Positions 36,073 through 56,267 of a stretch of 64,000 nt of DNA are shown here, in pieces (position 1 is the first letter of the stretch; each line of letters starts with the position of its first letter). The position numbers and the translations under genes were made by a program. The notes beneath the pieces are model-generated. The model did no database searches, had not been told where the DNA came from, and saw only the letters and a program-made list of their open reading frames with translations. Source of the stretch: a virus; IMG/VR virus record IMGVR_UViG_3300045988_183178, one strand, 5' to 3'.

Positions 36073-36129
36073 ATGAACTACTCACAACCGACTATTGTCG
36101 GATGGAGTTTTCTTACAATTCTTCGATAA
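36073..36129 (+). repeat. 57 bp dispersed repeat, copy 1 (ATGAACTACTCACAACCGACTATTGTCGGATGGAGTTTTCTTACAATTCTTCGATAA)
   Basis: Near-identical to copies 2-5. Contains the hairpin ACTC..CCGAC TATT GTCGG..GAGT followed by TTTTCTT on the plus strand. Confidence 0.8.
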
Positions 36130-36160
36130 TATTTAAAGTTTTCATAAAATTCCTTTCTTT

Positions 36161-36619
36161 TTACAATGTACTTTTTATAACCTTAACAGGTTCTAATCTG
36201 CCGTTTATAAATGAAGCAGTTCCTAATGTTTTATCAGTATTTTTAGAAGATTCAAAGAAATCATTTGCCATATCCTCATTTGAAAAATATGAATATTCTC
36301 CTGAATTGTCTCCGCAATCTGACTCATATCCTATCCAAACATAATAAAATGAAAATCTTTCAAGGTTATCACTGTCGTCAGGGATTGCTCCGTTCCAATC
36401 ATCATTTTCTTTTATATCTTCTTCTAATTCATATTTAAACTCGCTCATCATATTAGGATCGTCTAAATATACACATTTATGGTAATTATCAACTGCAATT
36501 GCGCATTTCTGTCCTAATGGATGCAGTAAATAATTCTTAGGCACTTCCAATAATGCTCCTATCATATCATTTACTGTTTCTAAGTTATTTTCCTTAATTT
36601 CAAATGCATTAGTTTTCAT
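36161..36619 (-). CDS. hypothetical acidic protein
   Basis: ORF. Confidence 0.65.
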   Translation of the reverse strand: MKTNAFEIKENNLETVNDMIGALLEVPKNYLLHPLGQKCAIAVDNYHKCVYLDDPNMMSEFKYELEEDIKENDDWNGAIPDDSDNLERFSFYYVWIGYESDCGDNSGEYSYFSNEDMANDFFESSKNTDKTLGTASFINGRLEPVKVIKSTL

Positions 36620-36703
36620 AATTTTATTCTCCTTTTTAAATTTTATAATAATACAATGACAGAAAAATAAAAAAACTGGCTACTAATAGTAACCAGTTTA
36701 ATT

Positions 36704-37693
36704 TTATAACTTTACAATTTTCTCATTAACTTCCATTCTAAATGTATTGATTTTGTCTATATCCGGCTCATCTGGCAATACAGAGTTTTTACATGCATTT
36801 TCAAACTTATTCTTGTATTCATCTACTATTTCAAAGAAATGTTTATTAGGGATTCCATTTTCATCAAGATATACACCATTTCTAATATCCATCAACAAAT
36901 CATGTTCTTTAATTCTTTTCGTTTGAATTTTCCCTTCAGAAACTAAATCAATTCCCATCATATACAATCTAAGTAAATGCATACTATGTTTTGCTATTTT
37001 ACCATGATTTAATGCATGTTCATTCCTTTTACTTGTTTTCCGGTAATCTCTTAAAGTGTTATTAAATTCTGAAAGCATTCCTGACAAATCTTCCATTGAA
37101 CACTGTGTTGCAATAATATTGCATTTGATTTTGCCGTCAACCAAATAAAAAGACACATTATTTTCATCTAAATTGTACTTATCGTTCATTTTCTTGGACA
37201 TATTATTAAGCACTCCAGAAATGTGTCTATTTAATTCTTCTTCCGTTAAAGCAGCGTTGGTCTTCTGCTGCATACGGTATAACTGTTGTAATGCATATTC
37301 ACTAAATGTATTAATACATCTATTCGATAAAAAAATATCTTTATTTTTTAATAAAAGCTCCCCAAATTCATTTTTATAAATATAATCATCTGTATCTAAT
37401 CCTAAAAGTTCAATAGTGTTTGGATTGCATTTAGCTAATAAATCAATAATTTTGTCAAAACTATAAATAGTTGTATCTGTATTAACATCTACAAAATTTT
37501 CAAAATCATTACCTAACAAGATATCTTCTTTTCTTCTAACAGCAACTCCTCTTATATCAATATCGCTTTCTGGAAGATTTGTCCCATATGCTCTGCTACC
37601 ACCTAATCCAAGTATACAAATATTCTTATCTAAATTTTGATTTTCCTTTAAAAATGAATACTCAGGCATATTTAATATATTTTTATTTATCAT
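36704..37693 (-). CDS. Pol-beta-superfamily nucleotidyltransferase (GS..DxD) with a C-terminal helical domain
   Basis: LGLGGSRAYGTNLPESDIDIRGV matches hG[GS]x9-13Dh[DE]h. Confidence 0.65.
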   Translation of the reverse strand: MINKNILNMPEYSFLKENQNLDKNICILGLGGSRAYGTNLPESDIDIRGVAVRRKEDILLGNDFENFVDVNTDTTIYSFDKIIDLLAKCNPNTIELLGLDTDDYIYKNEFGELLLKNKDIFLSNRCINTFSEYALQQLYRMQQKTNAALTEEELNRHISGVLNNMSKKMNDKYNLDENNVSFYLVDGKIKCNIIATQCSMEDLSGMLSEFNNTLRDYRKTSKRNEHALNHGKIAKHSMHLLRLYMMGIDLVSEGKIQTKRIKEHDLLMDIRNGVYLDENGIPNKHFFEIVDEYKNKFENACKNSVLPDEPDIDKINTFRMEVNEKIVKL

Positions 37694-37715
37694 ATTCTCT
37701 TCCCTATCCTTGTAA

Positions 37716-37771
37716 TTAAACTACCCACAACCGGCTATTGTCGGTTGGGGTTTTTTGCTTAATTGCGATAA
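37716..37771 (+). repeat. 57 bp dispersed repeat, copy 2 (diverged; ends 22 nt before the nucleotidyltransferase ATG)
   Basis: AAACTACCCACAACCGGCTATTGTCGGTTGGGGTTTTTTGCTTAATTGCGATAA. Confidence 0.75.
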
Positions 37772-37781
37772 TATCATTCTT

Positions 37782-38414
37782 TTATTTTCTAACAATAGCA
37801 GAAAAATCTACTGACTGTAAAATCTTAATGATATCTTCTACTTCAGGACTTCTCCATGCAGTCATAGCATAGGTATGAGCGTACTCATCGTAATGATAAT
37901 GATTTGCCTTTAGATGTTCAGCGGCTGCCTTTTCTGTTAAAAACATTGTGTTTTCATAAATTTTATCTCTATATGCATAACAGGTGAAAGTATATCTGCC
38001 ATAATTATGCTCATTCAACCAAGTCTTTAAATCATCAAGATCAGCTAAACATTCCTCATAATCATTATCTTCTTTTGATGTAACATAATATCCATCATAT
38101 TCTTTTGAAATAACCCAAGAATCACCGTTTTCTTCAAATTCCTTATTAAAAAATACAATTGCATCATCAATATTATCAGCAACTTCTTCGACTGCCTCAT
38201 TATCTATTAATGTTACACCGTCTTCATATCCTTCTGGAACAATACACTTTTCTTTCCCCATAATAACCCAAAATCGAGGATCAGCTTGTCCTACATGGTC
38301 CTGTGTATTTAATTCATGCTGCAAATCAGACAAAAATTTGATTTCTTTATCTGTAATTTTATGTTTCTCTACTGTGTCTGGATGGTATTGTAAATGTTCA
38401 TGAAATATTGCCAT
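37782..38414 (-). CDS. hypothetical protein
   Basis: ORF. Confidence 0.7.
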   Translation of the reverse strand: MAIFHEHLQYHPDTVEKHKITDKEIKFLSDLQHELNTQDHVGQADPRFWVIMGKEKCIVPEGYEDGVTLIDNEAVEEVADNIDDAIVFFNKEFEENGDSWVISKEYDGYYVTSKEDNDYEECLADLDDLKTWLNEHNYGRYTFTCYAYRDKIYENTMFLTEKAAAEHLKANHYHYDEYAHTYAMTAWRSPEVEDIIKILQSVDFSAIVRK

Positions 38415-38441
38415 ATTTTTCTCCTTAAACTTTATTTATTT

Positions 38442-38678
38442 TTATTCAGTATAGTATTGGAATGCACAATCATACATTTGTTTCCCAGTTATCTGATCTG
38501 TGAATATAGGGCAATGCCAATCCTTATTAAATCCTGTTTCCTTACACCATTCATTAATAACTCTAGTAGTAATTGGTGTGACAAATACATATAAATCTGA
38601 TTCATGGTGAAACATATCTTTTTCAGAATATCCAACCTCAATGAATCGTTGCATAAGAGTTTTATTATTTTTCTCCAT
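38442..38678 (-). CDS. small hypothetical protein
   Basis: AAGGAGAACAATATT then ATG. Confidence 0.6.
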   Translation of the reverse strand: MEKNNKTLMQRFIEVGYSEKDMFHHESDLYVFVTPITTRVINEWCKETGFNKDWHCPIFTDQITGKQMYDCAFQYYTE

Positions 38679-38716
38679 AATATTGTTCTCCTTTATTTAT
38701 TATAATTTAAAAGAAA

Positions 38717-38729
38717 TATGACAGAAAAA
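38717..38729 (-). promoter_or_regulatory. conserved promoter-like motif immediately after dnaE exon 2
   Basis: TATGACAGAAAAAA plus hairpin 38731-38752. Confidence 0.55.
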
Positions 38730-38782
38730 ACGCACATCATAATGACATGCGTTTTAATACAAAATATTCAATTAACTATTCA

Positions 38783-39538
38783 CTATGAGCATAACTTCTT
38801 AAGGTTATTTCTCATACCGGCTGACTCAAACTGGAAAACATTCTTAGTTCTTCCTTTTGCATATACTTCTTTGTATACCTTATCAGCTTTAGGACCCTCT
38901 AATGGAATATTCATTACATCAATTACTTCTCCTGTATCTCTCTGAATCATTCTGAGTGTGTCAGTAATAATTGTAAGAGTTTTTAATCCAAGAAAATCCA
39001 TTTTTAATAATCCATTAGCTTCGCACTGAATCATGTCCATTTCTGTAGTTTTAATTCCCTTTTTTCCATCTCTAATAGGAATATAATCAGTAACATCATT
39101 ACTATCATAAATAATAACACCTGCGGCATGTTGTGCGTATGTCGTAAGCATACCTTCACAATGAGCTGCAATATTAAGAATAGAAATAGCATCTGGATTA
39201 CTATTATATTCATCCTTTAAGAAATCTAACAAAGAAATGCTGTCCTGAATATTAATGCCTAATTCATCAACCTTATTAGTATCTTTCATGCCAACAATAT
39301 CTTCAAAATTAGTTGCTTTAGCAGGCACTTTCTTACGAATCTGATCTCCTAAAGATAAGAATTTCTTTTCATCATCATAAGCTTTCTTTCCATAATATCT
39401 TGCAGCATCTCTGATAGCACCTTTAGCCTGCTGTCTTGATTCTGTAATAATTCCAACAACAGCTTCACTACCATATTTAGCTCTTACATACTCAATTGTC
39501 TTTTCTCTTACTCCAAGAGCAAGATCACTATCGATATC
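38783..39538 (-). CDS. dnaE: DNA polymerase III alpha exon 2 (palm: DIDSD .. KMDFLGLKTL .. FQFES)
   Basis: Protein begins at the catalytic DxD and ends KKLCS followed by a stop. There is no start codon or RBS of its own; it is joined to exon 1 by the intron. Confidence 0.7.
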   Translation of the reverse strand, partial: DIDSDLALGVREKTIEYVRAKYGSEAVVGIITESRQQAKGAIRDAARYYGKKAYDDEKKFLSLGDQIRKKVPAKATNFEDIVGMKDTNKVDELGINIQDSISLLDFLKDEYNSNPDAISILNIAAHCEGMLTTYAQHAAGVIIYDSNDVTDYIPIRDGKKGIKTTEMDMIQCEANGLLKMDFLGLKTLTIITDTLRMIQRDTGEVIDVMNIPLEGPKADKVYKEVYAKGRTKNVFQFESAGMRNNLKKLCS

Positions 39539-40478
39539 CAAATATACCCCTACTTTCGTAGTACTTTAACACTTGTATAAGTGGGATTAGACTATATCTC
39601 AATATAATATTGTTAATATTATATTTCAACGCACTTCCAACTGTAACCATTCTCAGTTGTACTCCTTAAAAAGGATAGTCGTTACACTTTAAAATAAATA
39701 ATATTATATACGAACAATTTTTAAGTCATTCCATTTTAAATATTTATGCATTGAGGAATAACTTGCGTTATATTTTTCTTTAGCATATCGAGCTGCTGCT
39801 AATATGCTTTCAAATCTATCAATTAATATATCTCCTTTATATAATTTACAACACTTATAATTTCTTACAGGAGACATAGTTTTATAACTATCATATAAAT
39901 TGTCTTTTCTAGTACACCATTCTAAATTATTCACCTTACAATTTTGTTTATTTTTGTCTTTATGATTAACTTCTGGTAGATTATAAGGATTAGGAATAAA
40001 ATTCATCGCAACTAATCGATGCAATAAATATTTTTTATTATCTAATCTTATCATCCTGTAATTCTTTTTACTATCTAAAAAAGGTTTAAGTTGTCGAATT
40101 TTCCCTTGTTTTATACTAAAAATCTTTCCATATGAAGTTATGTAATATTCGTGGTGATTTTTAATTTCTACTATTTTTTCACCTTTTTCAAGGAATGATG
40201 TAAAATTGATATAATCTATCATAAATATACACCTCCTTATTTATATAATATTATTTATAATCTTAGCACGGTATCGCCTGCTATCCTTCAATATCTTTTA
40301 TATAAAAATATTAGGACCGTAGGTTCTCTTACGAAGCTGCTTCGTCTATGGGTTAAGCTATATATCCTGTTGTGACACTTTATATAGCAGTCTTATTCAA
40401 CTTCTACCGTTAGCACTTAATAATAAAATATTAAGCACACCTCTGAGTTAGAGTCCACGCTGAACGCCCAATATATTT
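39539..40478 (-). other. group I intron (about 940 nt) interrupting dnaE at the SMP|DID codons; carries an HNH homing-endonuclease ORF
   Basis: The 5' exon ends in U (..ATGCCT) and the intron ends in G (..GGGTATATTTG). The intron has G/C-rich structured flanks, including an S-like element GAGATATAGTCTAATCC and an ACTACGAAAGTAGGG hairpin. Confidence 0.65.
39704..40222 (-). CDS. HNH homing endonuclease (freestanding phage HNH_3-like)
   Basis: HRLVAMNFIPNP...EVNHKDKNKQNCKVNNLEW matches the HNH motif of phage intron endonucleases. AAGGAGG then ATG. Confidence 0.8.
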   Translation of the reverse strand: MIDYINFTSFLEKGEKIVEIKNHHEYYITSYGKIFSIKQGKIRQLKPFLDSKKNYRMIRLDNKKYLLHRLVAMNFIPNPYNLPEVNHKDKNKQNCKVNNLEWCTRKDNLYDSYKTMSPVRNYKCCKLYKGDILIDRFESILAAARYAKEKYNASYSSMHKYLKWNDLKIVRI

Positions 40479-42272
40479 AGGCATACTTACTCTTTCTGGA
40501 TTTAAGAATCGTTCAAAAATCAGATTATACTTAAATGGATCAATTCCGGTAATACCAAGTAAATATGTAACCAATGAACCGGCACCTGAACCTCTTCCAA
40601 TGCCTATTCCAATTCCGGTATTATAATTGTGAGCCTTAACATACTCTTTTGCACCTTCAATTGTTAAAGGTACTTCTGATAGTTTATCCATAGGTACTAA
40701 TCCACAAATTCTTCCATATTCCAGGAAGTCCTTTACAATTAAATGATAATCGGCAAAGCCCATCTGAATGATAATATTAAGTTCGTATTCCATTCGTTTC
40801 TGATGTTCTTCATCCCATCCTTTTCCGTTAGGATATCTCCAATTAATTCCCTTAATTGCTTCAGATCTTAATAATTCGTTTGAGTCCTTGTTCTTATCAA
40901 ATACTGGATAATGATTAGATTTTTCTGGAATATAAGCACATCTTTTTCCAATTACATTTAAGTTATTGAGTGCTTCTGCAACCTGATCATCTGTTAATAT
41001 AGCTGATAAGGCCTGAGCAAGTTCGTAAGGTGTTTTTACATATAACTCTTTATCTGATTCCGACTCACTTATCTTAATAAATCTTAAAAATTTAGCTACA
41101 TTACGCATATCAATACTTCTATCAGAATTATCTGCCATATGTGCATCATTAGCAGCAACTAATGGGATATTATGCTTCCTTGCTAACTGAGCTAACACAG
41201 GATATGTTCTGCTTTCCATTTCAAGCCCATGATTCTGAACTTCAATGTAATAATTACCTGCTCCAAAAATTTCCTGATAAAAAAGCATTGTCTTTTCTGC
41301 TTCAGACATTAATTCTATTGGGCTTTTCTTTAATGATTCATAATGCTGTATCTTATTTTCATGATTAATATATTCCTCTACTTTAAGACTTATATCCTTT
41401 AACTCGGCTTTCTTAGCATTAACTAATTTTCTGACATTAGGAATTTTATCTTTAGCTTCCAGAATTTTATTATTTATCTCCTCATATTCGTTAATCAGTT
41501 TAATAAGCTCTGGATCATCATCATTTAAACACTTTCTTGCATCTCTTAATTTTCTTGAAATCTGTGTTCTTTCTGATTTAAGTTCCTTGGAATCACGAAT
41601 ATTAATCAATTCATCTAAATCTGCCGATACCCTTTCAAATTCATCTTTAGCTGAAAGATATTCTTTATCATCAGGACTTATACAATCACGTATAACTAGC
41701 TCGTCTTTTTCAGTAGTATGCTGCTGTGCTTTTCTTTCTCTGTTAATCATTTTATCCAAAACATCATCTGATAATAATTGCAGAGCTGGTGCACCCGAAA
41801 CGCAAGCAGAAGTTGCTATTATATCACCGTTAAAGTTATATTTCTTTAAATCTGATATTGTAATAACAGGCTTTCCCATTCTTTTTTCAGAAGCCTTAGA
41901 ATTTAACTTATCAATAATATGCTTGCCTCTTTCTGAAGTGGCTAACATAATCATATGGCCAATCTGCTCATTTATCTTAAATGGTGGCACTTCAATATAA
42001 GCCTCTACGCCATAAATGATATTAAAAGGATGTTCCTCAGTACTTATTTTCTTAGCGTAATCAATACATGTTTGCATTGCTGAAAATGATGCATGGTCCG
42101 TAACAGCAAATTTAGTATATCCTGCATTAAATGCAGCATCTAAATAACTTTTAGGTTCATCTACGGCATCAAACAAAGAGCCTCCTGGATGGTTATGTTC
42201 ACACACTGTAACTCCTGACTCAATAACCTTTTTTGTTAATTCTCCAATTTTTACATGTTCAAACATTGACAT
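40479..42272 (-). CDS. dnaE: DNA polymerase III alpha exon 1 (PHP domain and start of palm; ends at ..[11 protein letters not shown])
   Basis: [12 protein letters not shown] / TDHASF PHP motifs, then [21 protein letters not shown]. Confidence 0.85.
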
Positions 42273-42306
42273 TAAATTTCCTCCTTTATAAATTTTATAA
42301 TTAATA

Positions 42307-42319
42307 CATGACAGAAAAA
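42307..42319 (-). promoter_or_regulatory. conserved promoter-like motif upstream of dnaE exon 1
   Basis: CATGACAGAAAAAA plus hairpin 42322-42349. Confidence 0.55.
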
Positions 42320-42321
42320 AT

Positions 42322-42349
42322 ACACCAGTTGACTAATCTCAACTGGTGT
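42322..42349 (-). terminator. intrinsic terminator (ACACCAGTTGA/TCAACTGGTGT)
   Basis: 11 bp stem plus T-run on the minus strand. Confidence 0.7.
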
Positions 42350-42383
42350 ATAAATACACATTATTTAATTGTTAATTATTTTA

Positions 42384-43535
42384 TTATTCTACCTTAACAA
42401 CGTCTCCTCTATCTGATGTTTCAGTAATAACAATATACTTGATTTCCATATTGTCGTTTGCAAGAGCAATTCTTGTTACATTATCTTCCTTACTTGTATC
42501 GACAATCCAATCATATCCTTCAACTGCAGACATTATCTTTGAATCAGTAATGATTTTATCAACATACTCTCCAATCATAATTCTGTCTTCAAGTCTGATA
42601 AAATCAGCACTATTCCAACCAATTGAAACAGATTTAATATGTGAAGGGATATTAATACTATTGAGCCTCATTAATGTACCACCATTAAGAGCAATCATTT
42701 CTGCTTTAATATGATCCATTTCGATTAATTCCTTAGTATTAGTAATTGTATCTAAATGATAATCACAATTATTGCATTCATCATAATCTCCACAATCATT
42801 TTCGCAGTCATAACCACAATCACAATCAGGATTATAATAATTATTATCACATACCTGCTCTGTATATTCAATGACCCATGTAGGTACATTCATTGAATTT
42901 CTTACAGTAATGACATTATTTATTGGTGCATCAAGCATTAAATAACTTGAAATATAATTCTTTGCACCATCATAAACGATAATTTCAGCATTATCAAAAT
43001 ATTCAGCGAAAATATCTTTTCCATTAAAATCCTTCTTTGTTTCAAAGTGTGTATAGGAAGTCTTTAGTATCACATATTTGTCACATACACCTATAACTTC
43101 CGGCATTGGAATTGAAACTGGAATAAGTTTCTTAAACTTATCCTCATCCGGCTTATAAGCAAATAAATCAATATAATCATCATGTTCTGTTGTGTTTTCT
43201 CTAGGTAATACAGATAATAAAAGCTTACCTGGAACAGATGTAACGATACTCTTAATTACCAGTGAACCCTGCTGTGTAGCAGCAACACCATCCTTAAGTA
43301 AAATTCCGTCTTCTACTGAATATCCATCTGGAATATCTGGAATATTAGGATTGCTGATAAGTCTAAAAGCAATTGCGTTAGATGATGATATCATAACAGA
43401 TATATCCTCGTTTACTTCACCATTTTCTAAAAGACAAGCCGTTCCTACGCCATCGGTAACAGATGTAATTAAATACTGTCTGTTGTCAACCTTGTTTAAT
43501 ACTGTTACATTTTCTAAAATTTTGTTTTCTCTCAT
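42384..43535 (-). CDS. hypothetical protein (383 aa) with Cys/Asp-rich insert; paralog of the next gene
   Basis: Shares N- and C-terminal regions with 43668..44717 (..TRIALANDNMEIKYIVITETSDRGDVV). Contains the insert CDNNYYNPDCDCGYDCENDCGDYDECNNCDY. Confidence 0.75.
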   Translation of the reverse strand: MRENKILENVTVLNKVDNRQYLITSVTDGVGTACLLENGEVNEDISVMISSSNAIAFRLISNPNIPDIPDGYSVEDGILLKDGVAATQQGSLVIKSIVTSVPGKLLLSVLPRENTTEHDDYIDLFAYKPDEDKFKKLIPVSIPMPEVIGVCDKYVILKTSYTHFETKKDFNGKDIFAEYFDNAEIIVYDGAKNYISSYLMLDAPINNVITVRNSMNVPTWVIEYTEQVCDNNYYNPDCDCGYDCENDCGDYDECNNCDYHLDTITNTKELIEMDHIKAEMIALNGGTLMRLNSINIPSHIKSVSIGWNSADFIRLEDRIMIGEYVDKIITDSKIMSAVEGYDWIVDTSKEDNVTRIALANDNMEIKYIVITETSDRGDVVKVE

Positions 43536-43667
43536 AATGAAAAATCTCCTTTTTTTATTTTATTCAAATAAAATATGACAGAAAAATTAAAACAAAATAG
43601 GATTAAAGCATATACATGCCTTAACCCTACTTTTTAAATTAATTATAGAGAATTCCGTTAATATCAA

Positions 43668-44717
43668 TTACTCTATGGTTATAATGTCTCCTCTATCTCT
43701 TGTTTCAGAAATAACAAGAGTCTTTATCTCCATAGTATTTGTATTAGCAAGAGAAATTCTTGTAACATGATCCTTAGATGTAATATCCACAATTACATTA
43801 TAACCTGCAAGCTCAGCAACTATCTTATCTGGGATCTTATATGTGATATCATTAATATACCACTTGCCTGAAGAAGCTTTAATCAGGCTTGCATTATATC
43901 CCTTTGAAATTGATTCTGGAACACTGTCAATTGCTGTTGTCTTATAAAGACTTAATGAATGACCTTCAGAAGCAACAAATCTTAATGTAATATAATCATC
44001 TTCCTTGATAACTCCGTCAGAATCGACTACTGTATCTGCTTCAATTGCGAAAATTGTTTCATTAGGTGCCTTAACAGAATCTACAGCCTTAATTGGCTCC
44101 GCAAAAGAAACATGATCAACAACTGCATCAGACATTACATCATATAACATGATTGCTGCAGCATCAAAGATATTATCTGTTTCAATAGTTCCATCTTCAA
44201 GCTTCTTATCCTTAGTATAAGTTCTTGAATATGTCATATATAACTGCATCTTATTCTCAGAAGAAGCAATGATTGTAACTTCTGGAATAGATCTTCTGAT
44301 AAGCTTATTAAACTTATCTGACTCAACTGTATATGACATAATATCGAAATAACCTTCTCTTGGTTCTCTTGGTTCGACAGATAAAATAAGTCTTCCTGCA
44401 ACACCTGCAATAATACTATTAATTACAAGTGAACCCTGTTCTGTAGCAGGGACTCCATTCTTAAGCAAAATTCCGTTTTTTACAGTATATCCAGTTGGAA
44501 CATCTGGAATATTAGGATCATCAATCAGCTTGTAAGCTATTGCATTATTAGCTGTAATTACTGCAGTAACCGAATCATCAAGTGAACCATCCTCCTTGAT
44601 TAACTTGGCTGTTCCTTTAATGGAATCACCTGAACCATCAACATTAATTACCTGGTAATTCTTACGGTCTACCTTGTTTAATACTGTTACATTAGTCTTA
44701 ATCTTGTTTATTCTCAT
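43668..44717 (-). CDS. hypothetical protein (349 aa); tandem paralog
   Basis: See the previous feature. Confidence 0.75.
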   Translation of the reverse strand: MRINKIKTNVTVLNKVDRKNYQVINVDGSGDSIKGTAKLIKEDGSLDDSVTAVITANNAIAYKLIDDPNIPDVPTGYTVKNGILLKNGVPATEQGSLVINSIIAGVAGRLILSVEPREPREGYFDIMSYTVESDKFNKLIRRSIPEVTIIASSENKMQLYMTYSRTYTKDKKLEDGTIETDNIFDAAAIMLYDVMSDAVVDHVSFAEPIKAVDSVKAPNETIFAIEADTVVDSDGVIKEDDYITLRFVASEGHSLSLYKTTAIDSVPESISKGYNASLIKASSGKWYINDITYKIPDKIVAELAGYNVIVDITSKDHVTRISLANTNTMEIKTLVISETRDRGDIITIE

Positions 44718-44828
44718 GATTAAGTCCTCCTTTTATTTTTTATTTAATACAAATTACATATGACAGAAAAATAAAAACAAATAAAAATATAGGACTTGTT
44801 TTTTTGTAAATCCTATTTTTATTAATTA

Positions 44829-46243: not shown

Positions 46244-46256
46244 TTTTTAAAATAAT

Positions 46257-46820
46257 TTAAAAATATTTCGAATAAAATAAATCAACCTGATGATACAAAT
46301 ATTGCAAATCCTTATCATTAGTTATTAAGAAATCATATTCCTTTGAATTTTTATATGCATCAAATTCCTCTCTTTCACTCTCCAAGCGTATTCGCAAAGT
46401 ATCAGGATTATCTCCTCTTAGAAGTCCTCTTTTAATTATTTTATCCTCAGCCAAATCAACATATACGCAAATTAAATTAAACAAATTATGCTTATTATGC
46501 TCTTTTAACCATTTAACGCCATCTGGATTTATAATGTATACACATGTATTTGATGGCAAAGCTTCTAATGCAGCACAATATTCTATTCCAGTTTTATCAT
46601 TTTTTGTATAAGCAATGATTGTTTTTTCTTTTAAAATATTGCTCATTTCTTCCTTTGAAATAAATATATGTTCTACACCATTTGTCTCATATTCTCTTTT
46701 TGGTCTGGTTGTCATTGAAACAACTGAAGGAATTCCATATTTTTCATTTAATACTTTTGCGACTGTATCTTTGCCACTTGATGTCTTTCCTATAACTGCA
46801 ATTATTGTCTTTTTATCCAT
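46257..46820 (-). CDS. guanylate-kinase-family nucleoside monophosphate kinase (dNMP kinase)
   Basis: P-loop IAVIGKTSSGKDT and the TTRPKREYE..G..Y.F motif. Confidence 0.75.
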   Translation of the reverse strand: MDKKTIIAVIGKTSSGKDTVAKVLNEKYGIPSVVSMTTRPKREYETNGVEHIFISKEEMSNILKEKTIIAYTKNDKTGIEYCAALEALPSNTCVYIINPDGVKWLKEHNKHNLFNLICVYVDLAEDKIIKRGLLRGDNPDTLRIRLESEREEFDAYKNSKEYDFLITNDKDLQYLYHQVDLFYSKYF

Positions 46821-46835
46821 ATTAAAAATCTCCTA

Positions 46836-46892
46836 ATGAACTACTCACAACCGACTATTGTCGGATGGAATTTTCTTACAATTCTTCGATAA
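46836..46892 (+). repeat. 57 bp dispersed repeat, copy 3 (abuts the RBS of the kinase gene)
   Basis: A single base differs from copy 1. Confidence 0.8.
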
Positions 46893-47044: not shown

Positions 47045-47077
47045 ATTAACTCCTTTTATCTTAAAATTTATTAAATA

Positions 47078-47090
47078 TATGACAGAAAAA
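47078..47090 (-). promoter_or_regulatory. conserved promoter-like motif
   Basis: TATGACAGAAAAAAA plus hairpin 47093-47114. Confidence 0.55.
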
Positions 47091-47139
47091 AAGTCCCATT
47101 TAATTAAATGGGACTAAAAATTATTTTTATGAATTAATG

Positions 47140-47394
47140 CTATTTATCATCCATATTTTCATTAATATTATCAATATTAATGACATCATTTTTATCAGCT
47201 ATTATTATATAAGATGATATTATTTTTGCAATAAATAAAGCATTAACTACAATTAAAATAACTCCTGGGATTATGTTATCAAAGTGCTTAATAACATCAA
47301 AAGCAATATCAGGAATGAACATAAAAGCTTCAATTATACAAGAAAATATTACACTATCTATTCCTTTTCTTATGCCTACTATATATTTATCCAT
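47140..47394 (-). CDS. small membrane protein (start at MDKYIV)
   Basis: AAAGGAGAACATC then ATG. Confidence 0.55.
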   Translation of the reverse strand: MDKYIVGIRKGIDSVIFSCIIEAFMFIPDIAFDVIKHFDNIIPGVILIVVNALFIAKIISSYIIIADKNDVINIDNINENMDDK

Positions 47395-47420
47395 GATGTT
47401 CTCCTTTTTTTCTTTCCATA

Positions 47421-48317: not shown

Positions 48318-48330
48318 AATATATTCTCCT

Positions 48331-49215: not shown

Positions 49216-49380
49216 ATTGCTTTGTTTTTATTTTGATATGATTTTTTAATTTTTATTAAGTCCATTATTATAATTCTTTCCTAAAAAAGTTTATATGTAT
49301 TAATATGACAGAGTGAAACAAAAAAAATAGCAGGAATTAACCTGCTATTTTTTATTATATTCAATTGTATTAAATATTGA

Positions 49381-52302
49381 TTAAGATACTGACTTCTTAT
49401 TTTTAGGCTTAGTACTATATGCAGCAGCAATTTTTTTTGTATCAATTTTTGCAAGTGCTGATGAATTCTTCTTAGCTTTGGCAGGAGAAGATGTATGAGA
49501 ATTAGCTCTTACCTTTTTAATCTTAGCATCCTGTTCTCTTAACTTAGCTGCTTCCTTTAATGCCTTGTTTGGATCAATAGGAACATAATTAGTATTAGTT
49601 ACATCAAATACTTCCTTAAGGAATGTGTTATATATTTCTCCATGTTCCTTATCTGAATAACAAACATATTGACCTGTTATAAATAATTCATCCTTTGCTC
49701 TGGTTAAAGAAACAAACAATAATCTTCTCATTTCCTCAATTTCTTTTTCATGATTAACTTTATTACGGATGCTATGCAAATGCTTGCTATCATACTTTGT
49801 AACACTGTTAAATATAACCGGCCATTCAAGTCCTTTTGATGAGTGAGCTGTTGTAAGTACAACACCTTCGTAAGTCTGTTCCATTTTCTTGCAGCAATTA
49901 GTTCCAAATACTTTAAAATCCTGAATATACTCTAACTCAGACTGTAAATCCTCATTTGCATATACCAAATCTAAGAAATATTCATAGATTTCATCTCCTT
50001 CATCTCCCTTAAGTGCGTCAAGCATATTATGGAAAATTTGTCTCTGAGACGGAATCGCTATCATATCCATATTCATAAACTGCTGCTTTAGTTTAGAGAT
50101 TTCATCATTAATATCATTAAATGATAAAAGATTTAATATTTCTCCATTATATTTCGCAGCCAGATAATCTAAATAAAGCTTATCTGCTTCAGGCTGATAA
50201 AATGCATCAGCTAAAGATAATGCAGCTTTAACCTTTCCGTTTTCAGCTAATGGCATTGGATTCATCATAACCCAAGGAATATTTGCTTTTGATAATGCGG
50301 CCCCAATAGAAACAAGTTCAGCCTTTGTATATGTAAGCACTGCAATGTCTTCTGGAATATGTTCGTTTAAATCCAACATCTCTTTAATTGTATCTACAAT
50401 ATACTCAATTTCTTCATCTTTGCTATAAAAGCCCTTTACTGTTACAGGTGCACCATGATCCTTACATGGATTCATAGCTTTAATAAGTCTTTCCTTATTA
50501 AGTGCTTCTATATCAGTTGCAACCTTAAGTATTTCAGGAGTACTTCTTCTATTAACTGATAAATTAATATCTATACCTTTTATGCCTAACTTATCGAAGA
50601 AATGAATCATGTTTTCCGGAGATGTATGTCTGAACCCATAAATACTCTGAGAATCATCACCTACAACCATTAAAGACTCAAAACATTTACAATTACATAG
50701 CTCCTTTATTGTATCCATCTGAATATCATTAGAATCCTGAAACTCATCTACTATAATATGCTTAAAACCTAATCTTTCTAAATAACCCGGATGCGCATTG
50801 ATAATGTTAAACATCATTGGTTCCTGATCAGCAAATGTAATAAGTGAATCTTCAAGTAGCTGTTTCTGGTATTCAGAATATAAATCTATTAACTGTGTAA
50901 CAGCAATACCAGTGCCCATAAATCTTGAATAACCTTTATCTCTTAAAAGTTCTGTAAGCTGATTATTTGCATCTGGAAGTGTAATATCAACATGTTCAGT
51001 TTTAATCAACTCAAAGCATTTTTCAGCACAAGCTAATGCACCTCTTAAGTTCGGTGTATCTGTCATAAAGTTCAAGTAATCGATTCCGTTAATATGATTA
51101 TCAGTTAATAATTGAGTAATAATCTTACGATTTCTTACATCATCAATTACAACAGGAGGATTTGTAAATCCCAATTCCTTATACTCAAATTTAACAATAT
51201 TATAAGCAAAACTATTAAAAGTCATTGCCTGAATATCGTCAGGACTTACAGAAAGTCCATAAGTTAAACACTTACTTGCGATCCTTGTTTTCATTTCTGC
51301 TGCACCTGCGTCTGTAAATGTTATAAATAACATTTCTTCCGGCTTGACACCTTCAACAAACATTTGTGCTCCTCTTTCAGTAACACATTCTGTTTTACCT
51401 GCACCGGCTGTAGCAATTACCCTTGCAATTCCTTTTCTAAAATCAACTATCTGCTGCTGTTCGTCTGATAAAATAATTTTGTCTCTCTTCTTAAGCGTTT
51501 TCTTTTCGAAATGTGCAGGAGTTTTTGTATAATGGCAAAGCATATTATAAGAACATGTTTTACAATCATCTTCTGTACACTGAATATGCCCCTGCTCAGA
51601 TAAATTGATCTGCTTAATATAATCTAATTCTTCTCCACAAAGACTATCTTTACCCCATTCAACTTCTTTTTCAAATGAAACAACATTACCGCCGTAGCCT
51701 GAAAAGAAATCAGCATCAGTCATACTTTTAGAAGTATCTGTGCTTTTTCTTAAGTAATAATAAGATCCTTTAATAATCTTTTTTTCACCTGGTTTAAGTA
51801 ATGATTTTGCATATAAATATAATGCATATATTTCCGGACACTTTAAAACAGATAAATCCTGTTTCTTGCCTGAGACAGTTACCACGGGCTTTGAAGCAAA
51901 AAACTTGATTGCTTCAATTTCATTTTTATTAACAGAAACAGCATCAGGTCTAATATGAATTGCGTAATCCTGACTTACAGGAATATCCTTAGCATCAACT
52001 TCAACTTCAAGTTTTCTTTTTTCGCAAGACGCATATCTTGTAAGAATTTCTGTAAGACGCTTAATTCTTCCTTCATTAGTTTCCGCAGGTAAATTATTCT
52101 CTTCAACACCTTCAGACACTAAATCATGAAATTCATTAATCTGAAACTCACCTTTTAAATAACCCATAATAATCTGCTTAATAATAATAGCATTATCATA
52201 ATTGTCATTTTTCTTTGTAGTAACTTCAATTTCCTTTTTTAAGTTCTTCATAAGACGACAATGATATTTGCCTCTTAACTCTTCTGATTTTAATACTTTC
52301 AT
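49381..52302 (-). CDS. UvrD/PcrA-like SF1 helicase with a 270 aa N-terminal Cys4 (Cas4/RecB-like Fe-S?) nuclease-like domain and a Lys-rich tail
   Basis: Helicase motifs ATAGAGKT, VDEFQDSN, GDDSQSIYGFR, TAHSSKGLEWPV and VSLTRAKDEL. N-terminal cluster CTEDDCKTCSYNMLC. Confidence 0.8.
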   Translation of the reverse strand: MKVLKSEELRGKYHCRLMKNLKKEIEVTTKKNDNYDNAIIIKQIIMGYLKGEFQINEFHDLVSEGVEENNLPAETNEGRIKRLTEILTRYASCEKRKLEVEVDAKDIPVSQDYAIHIRPDAVSVNKNEIEAIKFFASKPVVTVSGKKQDLSVLKCPEIYALYLYAKSLLKPGEKKIIKGSYYYLRKSTDTSKSMTDADFFSGYGGNVVSFEKEVEWGKDSLCGEELDYIKQINLSEQGHIQCTEDDCKTCSYNMLCHYTKTPAHFEKKTLKKRDKIILSDEQQQIVDFRKGIARVIATAGAGKTECVTERGAQMFVEGVKPEEMLFITFTDAGAAEMKTRIASKCLTYGLSVSPDDIQAMTFNSFAYNIVKFEYKELGFTNPPVVIDDVRNRKIITQLLTDNHINGIDYLNFMTDTPNLRGALACAEKCFELIKTEHVDITLPDANNQLTELLRDKGYSRFMGTGIAVTQLIDLYSEYQKQLLEDSLITFADQEPMMFNIINAHPGYLERLGFKHIIVDEFQDSNDIQMDTIKELCNCKCFESLMVVGDDSQSIYGFRHTSPENMIHFFDKLGIKGIDINLSVNRRSTPEILKVATDIEALNKERLIKAMNPCKDHGAPVTVKGFYSKDEEIEYIVDTIKEMLDLNEHIPEDIAVLTYTKAELVSIGAALSKANIPWVMMNPMPLAENGKVKAALSLADAFYQPEADKLYLDYLAAKYNGEILNLLSFNDINDEISKLKQQFMNMDMIAIPSQRQIFHNMLDALKGDEGDEIYEYFLDLVYANEDLQSELEYIQDFKVFGTNCCKKMEQTYEGVVLTTAHSSKGLEWPVIFNSVTKYDSKHLHSIRNKVNHEKEIEEMRRLLFVSLTRAKDELFITGQYVCYSDKEHGEIYNTFLKEVFDVTNTNYVPIDPNKALKEAAKLREQDAKIKKVRANSHTSSPAKAKKNSSALAKIDTKKIAAAYSTKPKNKKSVS

Positions 52303-52527
52303 AAAATATCTCCTTTATTATTTTGATAAAGAAAATATGACAGAAAAAATATTCAAGAGTAACAATAATTCCATCTTGGAATTTAATATCAATATTCACA
52401 GCGCTTCTTATTTAATTAACTTAGCTTTAAATTAGTTTCTTTATGCGATATTGCTTTATTTTCAAGGCCTTTATTATAAAAAGGACAGGCTGATTATACT
52501 TCAACCTGTCCTTAAAATTATATATTT

Positions 52528-54102
52528 TTACTTAGTAGAATTCTTTTCTGACTTAGACACTTTCTCAGGAACATTCTTTACAGTTACCTTAATCTCCGGG
52601 TCAACATCTTCTGGAATGCCTGTAAAGTTCACATTCTTTGTTGTCTTGGCATCATATGTATTAGCCTTCATTACTTCTGTAAGGTCAAAACCAGTTGTTT
52701 CCTTAACAGATTCAATTGTCTTTGCAAGTACTGATGGTACATTACTGCTAAATGAACCTACTCCGGTTTCACCATTACCACTGTCAATAATAGTTACCTT
52801 ATCAATGGCTTCTAATGGCTTTGCAATAGCTCCTGCCATCTCTGGAAGTACTTTGATAATCATTTCAGTCATGGCAGCCTTACCATACTTAGCCATTGCA
52901 TCTGCTTTCTTCTCCATAGCTTCAGCTTCAGCTAATCCTTTTGCCTTAATACTTTCAGCATCAGCAACACCTTTTGCCTTAATACTCTCTGCTTCTGCAA
53001 AGCCCTGTGCCTTTACTGCTTCAGCTTCCTGTTCCTTAGCAAATCTGTCTGCTTCTGCCTGTGATTTCTTAGCTTCAGCCTGCTTCTGAATTTCAAACTG
53101 CTTTGCTTCTGCTTCCTTCTGTCTCTGATAAAGTTCTGCATCTGCCTTTTGCTGTGCTGCATACTTTTCAGCTTCGGCCTGCTTACGGATATCAGCATCA
53201 AGTGTTTTTTCCTTAACAGTGATTTCCTTTTCTCTTAATTCAATTTCCTTTTCCTGCTTTGCAATATTAGCATTGGCAGTAGTGATTTCAATTGTCTTTC
53301 TCTGTTCCTGCTGCTGGATTTCATATGCCGCATCAGCTTCAGCCTTCTTAACATCTGCTGCTCTCTTTAATTCCTGCTTCTTAATCTCAAGTTCATTATT
53401 TCTTTCTGCAATAGCTGTCTCAGCTTCAATTCTTGCATCATTAGCCTGCTTTTCAGCATTAGCCTTTGCAACTGCAATATCTCTTTCTGATTCTGCTCTT
53501 GATATCTGTGCTGACTTACTGATACTTACAACCCTGTCAATACCAAGGTTTTCAATAACATTACCTTCATCTGTAACATTCTGAACATTAAAGCTTACAA
53601 TTTCAAGACCCATTCTTTCCATATCAGGAGCAGCATTCTCCTGTACCTTTTCAGCAAATAACTTTCTGTCCTGTACAATATCCTCAAGCTTCATCTGTCC
53701 TATAATTTCACGGACATTACCTTCAAGTACATCTACAACTGATTCTCTGATATAATCTGAATTTTTATTAAGGAAGTTACTTGCAGCCTTTCCAAGCATT
53801 TCAGGTGATGAACCAATCTTAATCTTTACAGCAGAATCAATATTAACATTAATATACTCATTTGTTGGTACTGATTCCTTTGTCTTTACATCAACAGAAA
53901 TCATCTTTAAATCAAGCTTATCTACTCTCTGTAAAAATGGTATCTTAAGTGATGACCTTCCGATAACATACTTAGGTGTCTTTCTAAGTCCTGATACAAT
54001 AAGTGCCTTGTCTGTCGGAGCCTTAATATAACTTGCAAATAATAATGCAATTAATACTACAACCACCGCTACTACAATTCCAATCGTTACTTCAATTCCC
54101 AT
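52528..54102 (-). CDS. flotillin-like SPFH/band-7 protein (N-terminal TM, SPFH domain, long Ala/Glu-rich coiled coil)
   Basis: The TM (MGIEVTIGIVVAVVVVLIALLF) is followed by the SPFH region. Long EA-rich heptad repeats sit on intragenic tandem DNA repeats (52930-53050). The gene is GC-richer than its neighbours. Confidence 0.75.
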   Translation of the reverse strand: MGIEVTIGIVVAVVVVLIALLFASYIKAPTDKALIVSGLRKTPKYVIGRSSLKIPFLQRVDKLDLKMISVDVKTKESVPTNEYINVNIDSAVKIKIGSSPEMLGKAASNFLNKNSDYIRESVVDVLEGNVREIIGQMKLEDIVQDRKLFAEKVQENAAPDMERMGLEIVSFNVQNVTDEGNVIENLGIDRVVSISKSAQISRAESERDIAVAKANAEKQANDARIEAETAIAERNNELEIKKQELKRAADVKKAEADAAYEIQQQEQRKTIEITTANANIAKQEKEIELREKEITVKEKTLDADIRKQAEAEKYAAQQKADAELYQRQKEAEAKQFEIQKQAEAKKSQAEADRFAKEQEAEAVKAQGFAEAESIKAKGVADAESIKAKGLAEAEAMEKKADAMAKYGKAAMTEMIIKVLPEMAGAIAKPLEAIDKVTIIDSGNGETGVGSFSSNVPSVLAKTIESVKETTGFDLTEVMKANTYDAKTTKNVNFTGIPEDVDPEIKVTVKNVPEKVSKSEKNSTK

Positions 54103-54135
54103 AAATTTTATTCCTTTCTTTTAGTAAAAATAAGC

Positions 54136-54192
54136 ATGAACTACTCACAAACGACATTAGTCGGATGGAGCTTTCTTGCTTGATTGCGATAA
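54136..54192 (+). repeat. 57 bp dispersed repeat, copy 4 (in the 5' leader of the flotillin gene)
   Basis: ATGAACTACTCACAAACGACATTAGTCGGATGGAGCTTTCTTGCTTGATTGCGATAA. Confidence 0.75.
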
Positions 54193-54232
54193 ACATCTTT
54201 TAAATTATTTTGTTTACGCCAGTCATTAGTAA

Positions 54233-54245
54233 TATGACAGATATT
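54233..54245 (-). promoter_or_regulatory. conserved promoter-like motif upstream of the flotillin gene (the 57 bp repeat lies between motif and RBS)
   Basis: TATGACAGATATT plus hairpin 54271-54292. Confidence 0.5.
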
Positions 54246-54319
54246 TAATTTATTTTTTTTACATAAAAAATGGCTATGTTTTCACATAGCCATTCAGGAG
54301 GGAGGTTTAAAATTTATTG

Positions 54320-54745
54320 TCAAGCATACAGTGCAAACGTATGCTTATGAGTCAAACTTTTTGCTGCCGCAATATCTCTTTGAATAAATTCTTTGTTAAT
54401 TCTTTTTTCGTAAGACTTAACAATATTCTGGAAATTATGTAAACAGCTTTCAATTGATGACTGCAATTCTGAATATACGCAGTCATTTTTCATGTCAATA
54501 TTATCAGAATTAATAAAAATACTAACAACATTGCAATCTGGTTCAGGCATTCCGTCATCTGTATAATAGCAATCGCTACCCATAAAAAGCACATATTTAC
54601 CTTCACCAAACACTAATTTTTTATCCATATAAATGTAAGATTCATCTTCATCTATATAGACCTCTGTTTCTCCAATTGATTCATCAAACATATTATTTTC
54701 AAATATATCAATGTCTTCTTCTTTTATATCAAATAAATCTAACAT
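54320..54745 (-). CDS. hypothetical acidic protein (start at MLDLFD)
   Basis: AAAGGAGG then ATG. Confidence 0.65.
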   Translation of the reverse strand: MLDLFDIKEEDIDIFENNMFDESIGETEVYIDEDESYIYMDKKLVFGEGKYVLFMGSDCYYTDDGMPEPDCNVVSIFINSDNIDMKNDCVYSELQSSIESCLHNFQNIVKSYEKRINKEFIQRDIAAAKSLTHKHTFALYA

Positions 54746-54855
54746 ACTGTATGTCCTCCTTTTAAATTGATTTATCTTATATATGACTGAAAAATAAAAT
54801 AAGATAAACAAAAAATGCATTTCTATTTATTAATATAGAAATGCATTTAACACAA

Positions 54856-55794
54856 TTAAATATATTCAATTTTTAATTCTTCAGTTTTGAGCCATGCATT
54901 CATGATTTTGTTATATAATTCTTTAAGTCTCTTTATTTCTTTTTTCGTTAAATGAACAACATTAACTAACATTTTATTTGAAGAACCTGCTAATTTATTC
55001 AAGATAACCTGTTTATCTTTAATTAGATAAACAATTCGTGTACAAGCCAAATTTACTGCACAATCTGGATTTTCCTGAATCAAATCATTGAATGTAAATC
55101 TTGAGTTAATGCCATTTTTTTTAATTAACCAAACGGCTTCAAGAGTTTCATCAAATTTTACATTTAAAGCTTTCTTATCTGTACTATAAACATAATCCTT
55201 TTCTGCAACACAATTATCCGGTATATCAATTATAGACGGTTCATATTGCAAACAATCTATTATAGAACCATTTTTATCAAATATATTTAATGGATAATCC
55301 TGAATTCCTATTAATTTTAAGTCTTCAGATGTAAATATATTTTTGATAGGATTGTCAATGGCTTTAGATTTTTCTTCATTAGAATTATTATTTTTAACAG
55401 ATAACTTTCCTGAAGAATCTATAGAAACAATACCCCAAGATGATTTATTATCTGCTTCTTCTAATGCGTAGTTTGACTTATCTCCAGGACATAACTCAGC
55501 AAGCCAATTTAATGTCTGTCCATAATTTAGCCCTGTTTTTAATTGGACCAGTTTAATTACATTCCAACTTTCTCCACAAGCAAAGCAATGGATTCCCTTA
55601 AAATGCTTTTTTGAATCCACATATATACTTGCTGAACCAAAATGTTTATCATTATGAAACGGACATAAAATTTCTCGTTTATTCCCAGTAACTATATCCG
55701 TTCCTGCAGTAGCATTTGAAATTTTAATATTAAGCTTGTTTATAACATCTAGCATATTAATGCTATCTACAATAGCTTGTCTATCATATCTCAT
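54856..55794 (-). CDS. protein with a DnaG-type CHC2 zinc-finger domain (putative primase component)
   Basis: CPFHNDKHFGSASIY..HCFACGESWNVIKLV matches the primase zinc-binding domain. Confidence 0.65.
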   Translation of the reverse strand: MRYDRQAIVDSINMLDVINKLNIKISNATAGTDIVTGNKREILCPFHNDKHFGSASIYVDSKKHFKGIHCFACGESWNVIKLVQLKTGLNYGQTLNWLAELCPGDKSNYALEEADNKSSWGIVSIDSSGKLSVKNNNSNEEKSKAIDNPIKNIFTSEDLKLIGIQDYPLNIFDKNGSIIDCLQYEPSIIDIPDNCVAEKDYVYSTDKKALNVKFDETLEAVWLIKKNGINSRFTFNDLIQENPDCAVNLACTRIVYLIKDKQVILNKLAGSSNKMLVNVVHLTKKEIKRLKELYNKIMNAWLKTEELKIEYI

Positions 55795-56063
55795 GCAACT
55801 GCCTCCACAACAACTTCATTACCTTCAATATGCGCATTGCTGCAATATCCGCCAATTGCTTTAAGGGATTCGACAACCAGATCCTTTGTAGCATATAAAT
55901 GATCTCCAGGAGCTAAATAAAAAACATTTTCTTCACTGTTTATTAATTCAATGCCTTCTGATGAAGAAACATTTTTGCATACATATGGATAATTATCCTC
56001 CTTATTTTTGTTAACTTCTACTGCTAAAGCCTTTCTCCATGGCGTAAAATCGAATTTATTCAT
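55791..56063 (-). CDS. small hypothetical protein
   Basis: AAAGGAGGAATTTGTT then ATG. Confidence 0.6.
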   Translation of the reverse strand: MNKFDFTPWRKALAVEVNKNKEDNYPYVCKNVSSSEGIELINSEENVFYLAPGDHLYATKDLVVESLKAIGGYCSNAHIEGNEVVVEAVA

Positions 56064-56210
56064 AACAAATTCCTCCTTTAAATTTTTGATATAAAGGATA
56101 TGACAGAAAAAAAATCATTAATGAAAGGAGATTCTAAATTCATGATGATATAACAAAAGCAGGAGATGCTTGCTTATCTCCTGCTAAAATATTAATTTCT
56201 AAATTATTTT

Positions 56211-56267
56211 ATGAACTATTCACAATTGACTATTGTCGAATAGAGTTTTCCTGCTATTCTTCGATAA
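56211..56267 (+). repeat. 57 bp dispersed repeat, copy 5 (most diverged)
   Basis: ATGAACTATTCACAATTGACTATTGTCGAATAGAGTTTTCCTGCTATTCTTCGATAA. Confidence 0.7.

Follow-up and report, generated by a model that had tools for sequence, protein, structure and literature searches.

A 57-nt repeat dispersed in a virus genome, probably a terminal-only derivative of a TnpB-encoding IS200/IS605-family transposon

In Haloquadratum walsbyi, 1.5-kb TnpB-only IS605-type elements and palindrome-associated transposable elements (PATEs) collapse to terminal-only PATEs of 52 bp by repeat-mediated deletion between identical near-terminal palindromes, the precedents being the core deletion in HqIRS46 and the 52-bp derivative of ISHwa23, with a hint from the authors that mobility may persist in the 52-bp form (Dyall-Smith et al. 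2011, PMC3119063). Insertion of IS200/IS605 elements takes place in the lagging-strand template, so that their copies are co-directional with replication, and hence with most genes (PMC5027513). In IS608, TTAC lies 19 nt 5′ and TCAA 10 nt 3′ of the palindromes, and the guides are of 4 nt (PMC3201880). PATE-like members of TnpB and IscB transposon lineages have been described in Geobacillus stearothermophilus, together with the TAM/TEM concept (TAM, transposon-adjacent motif; Meers et al. 2023, PMC10055086). Here, we analyzed a repeat of 57 nt that is present in five copies in a 64-kb stretch of virus DNA (IMG/VR record IMGVR_UViG_3300045988_183178; the whole stretch is hereafter called the window). 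We conclude, with a probability of about 0.9, that each copy is a terminal-only PATE of a TnpB-encoding IS200/IS605-family transposon.

The resemblance to the Haloquadratum elements is close. In both cases, a non-coding unit of ~50–57 bp corresponds to the fused termini of a ~1.5-kb TnpB-only IS605-type element and has one near-terminal palindrome, whilst the parent has near-identical palindromes at its left and right ends, arranged as direct repeats. Both have a short 5′ targeting oligonucleotide and a conserved 3′ terminal oligonucleotide, lack terminal inverted repeats and target duplication, and show strain-specific insertions. However, the elements described here belong to Clostridia/Lachnospiraceae and their phages rather than to haloarchaea and have no sequence relationship to the haloarchaeal ones, and the copies in question are those of a virus genome and all share the orientation of its genes. 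Judged at the level of sequence, the repeat appears to have every defining feature of the terminal-only PATE class.

Probable fused ends of a TnpB-encoding element

The five copies comprise an exact match to the 57-mer at 36073, a match with 1 mismatch at 46836, and three matches to the degenerate core at 37716, 54136, and 56211. All have the + orientation, as an earlier note on this DNA had reported, and 0 are expected in dinucleotide-shuffled sequence. The other copies are 65–98% identical to copy 1. We describe the element in gene sense, which is the minus strand of the window. In that sense it reads TTAT-CGAAGAATTGTAAGAAAA-CTCCATCCGAC-AATA-GTCGGTTGTGAG-TAGTTCAT, comprising a left-end spacer of 17–18 nt that ends in an A-rich stretch (AAAA in most copies), an imperfect hairpin, and a right-end tail, TAGTTCAT, which includes the putative cleavage motif TCAT. 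The length of 57 bp given in the earlier note is correct if the 5′ TTAT is counted, save for copy 2, which has 56 nt; most likely, however, TTAT serves as the target motif and does not belong to the element. A unit of this size is too short for a transposase gene.

A scan of metagenomes with the degenerate core returned >100 loci, and 83 distinct instances were sorted into three classes by profile and fuzzy-pattern searches. The mini class, to which the window's repeat corresponds, is TTATCG…hairpin…TAGTTCAT, and is represented by 36 distinct sequences at 20 distinct sites. Members of the left-end class begin in the same way (TTATCG…AGCAAGAAAAC-hairpin) and continue into ATGAATTGC…, whilst those of the right-end class have a variable, covarying hairpin, CATAGAAAC, the hairpin of the mini form, TAGTTCAT, and then unrelated flank. 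The left- and right-end types are found ~1.5 kb apart and in the same orientation in L107, L126, L109, L141, L143, L179, and L180 (locus handles of this study). The full-length order is TTAT, the left end with its hairpin, tnpB, a structured omega-RNA-like region, the same hairpin, TAGTTCAT, and flank, with the core …AAACTCCATCCGAC-NNNN-GTCGGTTGTGAG at both ends of the ~1.5-kb elements. In L107, the element extends from 4461 (TTATCG…GTGAG followed by ATGAATTGC) to 6041 (…CATAGAAAC-hairpin-TAGTTCAT followed by flank). The open reading frame (ORF) between the ends encodes a TnpB of 462 aa with OrfB_IS605 and Cas12f1-like TNB domains.

The same right end was found in metagenome-assembled genomes of Lachnospiraceae/Clostridia, with at least 6 copies in one of them, on the basis of GC-rich loci and a bacterial genome scan, and the element of Lachnospiraceae genome assemblies additionally has a divergent gene for a Y1 transposase (tnpA). 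A complete IS605-type unit is present in L200, with TTAT and the left end at 585-680, the divergent tnpA at 707-1141 (Y1_Tnp, E = 1.4e-33), tnpB at 1268-2758, and then …TAGTTCAT. In L092 and L178, a Y1-like tnpA precedes the right end, and tnpB lies between the two (confirmed by Pfam for L092, and by tblastn only for L178). L101 and L169 are ~245-nt derivatives in which both hairpins, the final 23 tnpB codons, and the 3′ structured region in its entirety are retained. As in Geobacillus stearothermophilus, autonomous, TnpB-only, and protein-less members of one lineage share left-end and right-end sequences. A promoter-like motif of the window (TCTGTCATA) recurs in metagenomic phages that carry full-length TnpB elements; L180, for example, is a related phage contig with this motif, a full-length element, and a Y1 tnpA. 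From these sequences, the IS605/TnpB lineage appears to be common to Lachnospiraceae/Clostridia chromosomes and to AT-rich gut phages that share the TCTGTCATA motif. L180 also harbors a second IS605-like unit of a different family (98-1754, minus strand), ~650 nt from the full-length copy, in which a Y1 tnpA occupies 1359-1754 and a TnpB-like ORF (26-32% identity) 98-1159.

The boundaries of the mini form are sharp. Conservation stops exactly after TAGTTCAT (TAGTTCAT positions 52–56/56 identical), with random sequence beyond, and the sequence left of TTAT is not conserved either. At 20/20 sites the mini form is preceded on its 5′ side by TTAT or by a sequence that differs from TTAT at one base (ATAT in L110, TTAC in L001), and TTAT is present at the left ends of full-length elements as well. 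The termini (TTATCG… and …GTTCAT) do not form inverted repeats, no target-site duplication was seen at the 20 sites, and at 19 of the 20 the mini form has the orientation of the dominant coding strand. The geometry resembles that of IS608: the left motif is TTAT at 17–18 nt, compared with TTAC at 19 nt; the right motif is TCAT ending at 8 nt, compared with TCAA at 10 nt; and an A-rich stretch of 4 nt precedes the foot of the hairpin, where IS608 has its guide. Subterminal imperfect hairpins, an orientation bias, and Y1 tnpA plus tnpB in autonomous relatives are further features shared with IS608 and ISDra2, which transpose as single strands ("peel-and-paste"). Unlike those elements, the phage copies have no genes and a single hairpin, and cleavage and binding by TnpA are proposed by analogy.

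One of the copies is polymorphic. Two IMG/VR contigs of 95 and 103 kb, which are 96–99% identical to the window, have copies 2–5 at the same sites and a sixth copy just beyond the window. Copy 1 is missing from both. The window, L139, and L105 have this copy, whereas L005 and L006 (96–99% identical genomes) lack it. At the corresponding position L005 and L006 have an intact ORF of ~90 codons. The statement that the repeat is always between genes consequently needs an exception for copy 1, which lies inside the remnant of this small ORF, and the "promoter motif" noted downstream of it (GTCATATAT) turned out to be coding sequence of the disrupted frame. In L105, copy 1 is present and the remainder of the ORF is still there. 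L139 has the same copy 1 junctions as the window, including the junction of TAGTTCAT with GCAAATACAG, and, relative to L105, the window and L139 have a deletion of 173 nt that adjoins the right end of copy 1 and whose distal end is immediately after TT(T/C)AT. The three alleles of this site are empty, filled, and filled with an adjacent deletion.

Small length differences were also observed beside copy ends. A 12-nt indel, AAATAATTTTAT, lies directly 5′ of the left end of copy 1 with TTAT on both sides (window junction 36129 versus ~11585-11600 in L005), and relatives have 13 extra nt, ATTTCTATATTAT, bounded by TTAT, at the left junction of copy 5 (window 56268 versus 6008-6020 in L069). Such indels, and likewise the 173-nt deletion beside copy 1, could reflect aberrant TnpA cleavage at neighboring target motifs, or simple slippage. 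L139, which has copies 1, 2, and 3 with the window's junctions, is a 322-kb metagenome contig (OCHC01000010.1), far longer than the ~95-103 kb IMG/VR genomes, and could be a prophage, a concatemer, or a misassembly.

Outside this group of genomes, the public phage genomes in INPHARED gave no match to the 57-mer and only a trivial match to the 20-kb region. Strict and loose pattern scans of IMG/VR found the element only in two contigs of the same phage species, with other matches attributable to chance, and distant phages that share the RlaP-like gene (45–53% identity, 60+ loci) lack it.

Proposed origin of the copies and points against it

How the 57-nt unit would have arisen can be outlined from its parts, namely the 5′ part of the left end, one shared hairpin, and the tail of the right end. 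Their fusion would be a deletion between the ~35-nt direct repeat (AGAAAC-hairpin) that is common to both ends. If IS608 and ISDra2 are taken as models, the hairpin on the gene-sense ("top") strand would be the binding site of the Y1 HUH transposase TnpA, the bases just 5′ of it (AAAA/GAAA) would act as DNA guides that direct cleavage after TTAT and TCAT, and insertion would occur into the single-stranded lagging-strand template, which would account for copies all pointing with the genes. The orientation of the mini form at 19/20 sites and the G-richness of the window's gene-sense strand are in keeping with such insertion. The earlier suggestion of a protein-binding site thereby survives in a specific form, as the family's hairpin is the kind of structure that Y1 TnpA would bind. 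TnpA would be supplied in trans, from cognate IS605 elements of the Clostridia/Lachnospiraceae host or of co-infecting phages. The cognate Y1 tnpA genes in L200, L092, and L178, together with the uniform orientation at 19/20 sites, are indirect indications of a possible strand-specific Y1 mobilization via a single-stranded circle. The collinearity with both full-length ends, the TTAT/TCAT boundaries, the copy 1 polymorphism, and the co-orientation with genes are direct observations, and a single known mechanism would explain the fixed orientation, the variable position relative to promoters and ribosome-binding sites (RBSs), the T-run, the mini ORF, and the compensatory changes.

Either the 57-nt form itself was mobilized, or insertions of 1.5 kb (or ~245 nt) collapsed in place by direct-repeat deletion. 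The CGAAGAAT variant of the left end is confined to mini copies, at no fewer than five sites (>=5), which hints at amplification of the mini form. Conversely, the left-end spacer of copy 4, CGCAATCAAGCAAG, is identical to that of the ~245-nt PATE in L169, which hints at repeated independent collapse. Within this gut phage, the copies are probably selfish or neutral passengers; none contains a gene-sense terminator, so operons are not interrupted. They also appear to act as short patches of homology. Copies 1 and 3 of the window share the derived states TTGTAAG and loop AATA, which are absent from copies 1 and 3 elsewhere, and this points to gene conversion between the two. Repeated intergenic stem-loop motifs that provide portable homology for recombination are familiar from the early promoter–stem-loop (PeSL) cassettes of T4-type phages. 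Those cassettes consist of the phage's own terminator and early promoter and are not transposon ends; to our knowledge, and unlike the repeat described here, they have no TTAT/TCAT boundaries and no TnpB-bearing parents.

Several observations weigh against the terminal-only PATE interpretation. There is no tnpA or tnpB of this family within the 64-kb window, nor a close homologue of either gene in the two near-complete IMG/VR relatives, and so no source of transposase in cis. The comparison of filled and empty copy 1 sites does not show a clean insertion, because there is a 12-nt difference in addition to the 173-nt deletion in the window; for that reason, the position of TTAT outside the element is inferred rather than demonstrated. 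IS608-type TnpA dimers normally synapse two hairpins. An element with a single hairpin may not be transposable, in which case "mobile" would cover only the full-length and 245-nt parents. Co-orientation could equally be due to selection against the orientation that places the hairpin and a U-run in mRNA. Finally, the copies may have acquired a role at the RNA level in the phage.

The hairpin as RNA, and other explanations

The earlier note had read the hairpin as a structural RNA or terminator of the plus strand. That the hairpin is real was borne out, since most copies fold better than shuffled sequences on either strand. However, the proposed compensatory signature of the plus strand was not supported when the 10-pair hairpin was followed over 51 distinct variants: cells were paired in 93.7% in gene sense and 92.4% in plus sense (controls slid along the sequence paired in <=46% in either sense), one-sided wobble cells numbered 25 and 18, respectively, and double-sided compensatory changes were found in 11 cells at 3 pairs. 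The plus-sense-only G·U pairs described for copies 2 and 5 do exist, one in each, yet copy 5 also has a T·G that pairs only in gene sense. The pattern suggests that the hairpin is selected as a structure, without a plus-strand signal. Single-sequence folding of copies 1 and 4 extended the hairpin by an outer stem, which is coincidental, given that the flanking bases it uses pre-exist in the empty site.

In full-length elements, the same hairpin is the 3′-terminal stem of a conserved multi-stem region of ~155 nt that overlaps the 3′ end of tnpB and shows covariation at 7 pairs, in addition to the covarying variable hairpin. Its position and structure are omega-RNA-like, and we regard it as the expected omega-RNA of this TnpB, which would be made in gene sense; the full-length parents would thus produce the hairpin on the strand opposite to that proposed earlier. 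As in Geobacillus, TAM/TEM motifs are clade-specific, and the predicted omega-RNA overlaps the right end with the flank beyond as guide. Unlike the PATEs of that species, which often encode an omega-RNA, the 57-nt form retains ~38 of the ~155 nt, that is, only the last stem and tail, and L101 and L169 are the better match. The mini form fails as a complete TnpB omega-RNA, as the full ~155-nt scaffold is not retained, and it has no Rfam match. A search of the full-length element against Rfam at a permissive E-value gave nothing relevant, and at gathering thresholds there was nothing at the repeats in the window.

These data bear directly on the idea that the hairpin followed by UUUUCUU is an intrinsic terminator of the plus strand, or an antisense small RNA, which stops or defines transcripts antisense to phage genes. 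The T-rich run does follow the hairpin on the plus strand, copies 1, 2, and 4 fold more stably on the plus strand than shuffles do, copy 2 is terminator-like in a consensus scan, and the plus-sense G·U pairs of copies 2 and 5 point the same way. Yet copy 2 is the only one of the four copies scanned (1–4) to be called, pairing is no better in plus sense by either of the measures given above, the protein genes of the window are apparently all encoded by the minus strand, and the promoter-like motif has 24 occurrences in gene sense as against 4 in plus sense. The T-run complements a conserved A-rich stretch, AGAAA(A), located 5′ of the hairpin at both ends of full-length elements, and the T-run, ATG, and TAA as a set are complements of the transposon-end motifs AGAAA, TCAT, and TTAT, which are also found in elements on bacterial chromosomes. 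We consider the plus-strand explanation highly improbable, and the repeat does not qualify as a Rho-independent terminator of that strand. An even smaller chance, close to nil, is left for a plus-strand micropeptide gene (MNYSQPTIVGWSFLTILR), which we rejected. The 17-codon ORF is, as reported, intact in copies 1 and 3 only, where it starts with ATG, and copy 4 encodes a similar peptide of 15 residues with some synonymous or conservative changes. However, the start codon is missing from copy 2, truncation leaves 10 codons in copy 5, and no copy is preceded by an RBS, whereas phage genes have strong AAAGGAG sites. The ATG…TAA frame is the reverse complement of TCAT…TTAT, and its ATGA and ATAA are those of TCAT and TTAT, conserved in non-phage copies for reasons of transposition.

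A gene-sense RNA that has been exapted, either as a signal that governs the processing, stability, or translation of the downstream gene's message or as a decoy or handle for TnpB, also seems quite unlikely. In its favor, all copies are in gene sense and within transcription units; copies 2 and 3 abut an RBS, whilst copy 4 is located in a 5′ leader; relatives keep copies 2 to 5 at the same sites; and, for the version involving TnpB, the hairpin is the last omega-RNA stem and lies beside the would-be guide, with a precedent in PATEs that often encode omega-RNAs needing TnpB in trans (Meers et al., PMC10055086). On the other hand, the position relative to promoter and RBS is inconsistent, copy 1 lying within a disrupted ORF and copy 5 shortly before a terminator, retention among genomes that are 96–99% identical is uninformative about selection, TnpB loading is unlikely with ~38 of ~155 nt retained, and the window encodes no TnpB. 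Somewhat less doubtful, though still unlikely, are two more active roles for the 57-nt unit. It may be the smallest Y1 TnpA substrate and be spreading actively, one hairpin serving both cleavage sites, or it may be an omega-RNA handle plus guide, such that a TnpB from the host or a co-infecting phage would use, or be titrated by, the transcribed module; the latter, if true, would amount to a dispersed proto-CRISPR-like arrangement in a virus.

Other classes of element were compared as well. The earlier suggestion of a mobile element resembling a MITE (miniature inverted-repeat transposable element) holds insofar as the unit corresponds to fused transposon ends, copy 1 varies in presence, and TTAT is the likely target; without terminal inverted repeats or target-site duplication at the 20 sites, however, the repeat is not a MITE, and PATE is the appropriate class. 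Repetitive extragenic palindromes (REPs) mobilized by RAYT (TnpA_REP) are likewise short, dispersed, extragenic hairpins related to IS200-type Y1 substrates, with GTAG beside the palindrome. In the present repeat, GTAG is 3′ of the palindrome in gene sense, compared with 5′ in REPs, the element is collinear with TnpB transposon ends, no RAYT gene was seen, and the Y1 genes are located in IS605-type units beside tnpB, so we did not assign it to that class. An IStron (group I intron plus TnpB) was rejected because the left end is ~60 nt from the start of tnpB, which leaves no room for an intron core.

If the terminal-only PATE interpretation is correct, this lineage exposes transposon traffic between hosts and phages, and its autonomous, TnpB-only, ~245-nt, and 57-nt forms form a natural series from which to learn how much of an IS200/IS605 element can be lost without loss of mobility. 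The lineage also yields a candidate TAM, in that the TnpB of the lineage is predicted to use TTAT with the ~155-nt omega-RNA-like scaffold, the predicted end of the omega-RNA being …GTGAGTAGTTCAT plus guide. For annotation, such repeats should not be labeled as regulatory RNAs.

The copies in their genomic setting

Table 1. Coordinates of the repeat copies and associated features in the window
Feature	Position	Strand	Remarks
Copy 1 (c1)	36073..36129	-	Absent from L005, L006; chimeric left-end/right-end
c1 TTAT, putative target motif	36129-36126	-	
c1 left-end spacer with A-rich putative DNA guide	36125-36108	-	
c1 hairpin CTCCATCCGAC-AATA-GTCGGTTGTGAG	36107-36081	-	
c1 right-end tail TAGTTCAT	36080-36073	-	
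5′ remnant (ATGAAAACTTTAAATA) of small ORF broken by copy 1	36130..36145	-	ORF intact in L005, L006
3′ remnant (…HANTAINIIESVIYDNSDENNNN, then stop) of small ORF broken by copy 1	36004..36072	-	Alignment to relatives
Copy 2 (c2), 56 nt, tail mutated to TAGTTTAA	37716..37771	-	
Copy 3 (c3)	46836..46892	-	In all relatives
Copy 4 (c4)	54136..54192	-	5′ leader of SPFH/flotillin-like gene 52528-54102
Copy 5 (c5)	56211..56267	-	Intergenic

The genes near the copies include those for an RlaP-like nucleotidyltransferase, a guanylate kinase, an SPFH/flotillin protein, and a UvrD helicase. Copy 1 follows a stub of 10 codons. Copy 2, which is also present in L005, L006, L081, and L139, is flanked by the stop codon of gene 37782-38414 and the RBS of the RlaP-like gene (36704-37693), and copy 3 by the stop codon of an ORF of ~49 codons and the RBS of the guanylate-kinase-like gene (46257-46820). 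Copy 4 sits between a CTGTCATAT motif and the RBS. The neighbors of copy 5 are gene 56314-56748 and a gene-sense terminator hairpin at about 56150-56185.

A recurrent gene-sense motif, TTTTTTCTGTCATAT(AT), was observed at >=24 minus-strand sites in the window (e.g., 47077-47092, 42307-42322, and 17238-17253), ~25-35 nt upstream of AAAGGAG RBSs and frequently continuous with the T-run of the terminator hairpin before it; the motif probably represents a promoter class belonging to the phage.

The window also contains a second OMEGA-type element, spanning 25329-26880. It comprises a HEARO/omega-RNA at 26667-26880 on the minus strand (Rfam RF02033, 107.7 bits), the sole Rfam match in the window at gathering thresholds, and, directly downstream of it, an IscB-like ORF of 419 aa with RRXRR and HNH domains (25329-26588, minus strand). 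Kinship with the repeat was considered and rejected, as the ends of this element are dissimilar to the 57-nt unit. A scan for tRNA and tmRNA genes found none.

The gene-sense strand is G-rich throughout the window, and the interval 28000-30000 is the sole stretch in which GC and AT skew of the plus strand are neutral or positive; it has few long minus-strand ORFs and may be a foreign or differently oriented insert beside the IscB element. Finally, the adjacent minus-strand genes 42384-43535 and 43668-44717 (383 and 349 aa) share stretches of 77% identity at 43197-43380 and 44364-44547, which correspond to repeat families D9 and D17, and from their sequences the two genes look like tandem paralogues.

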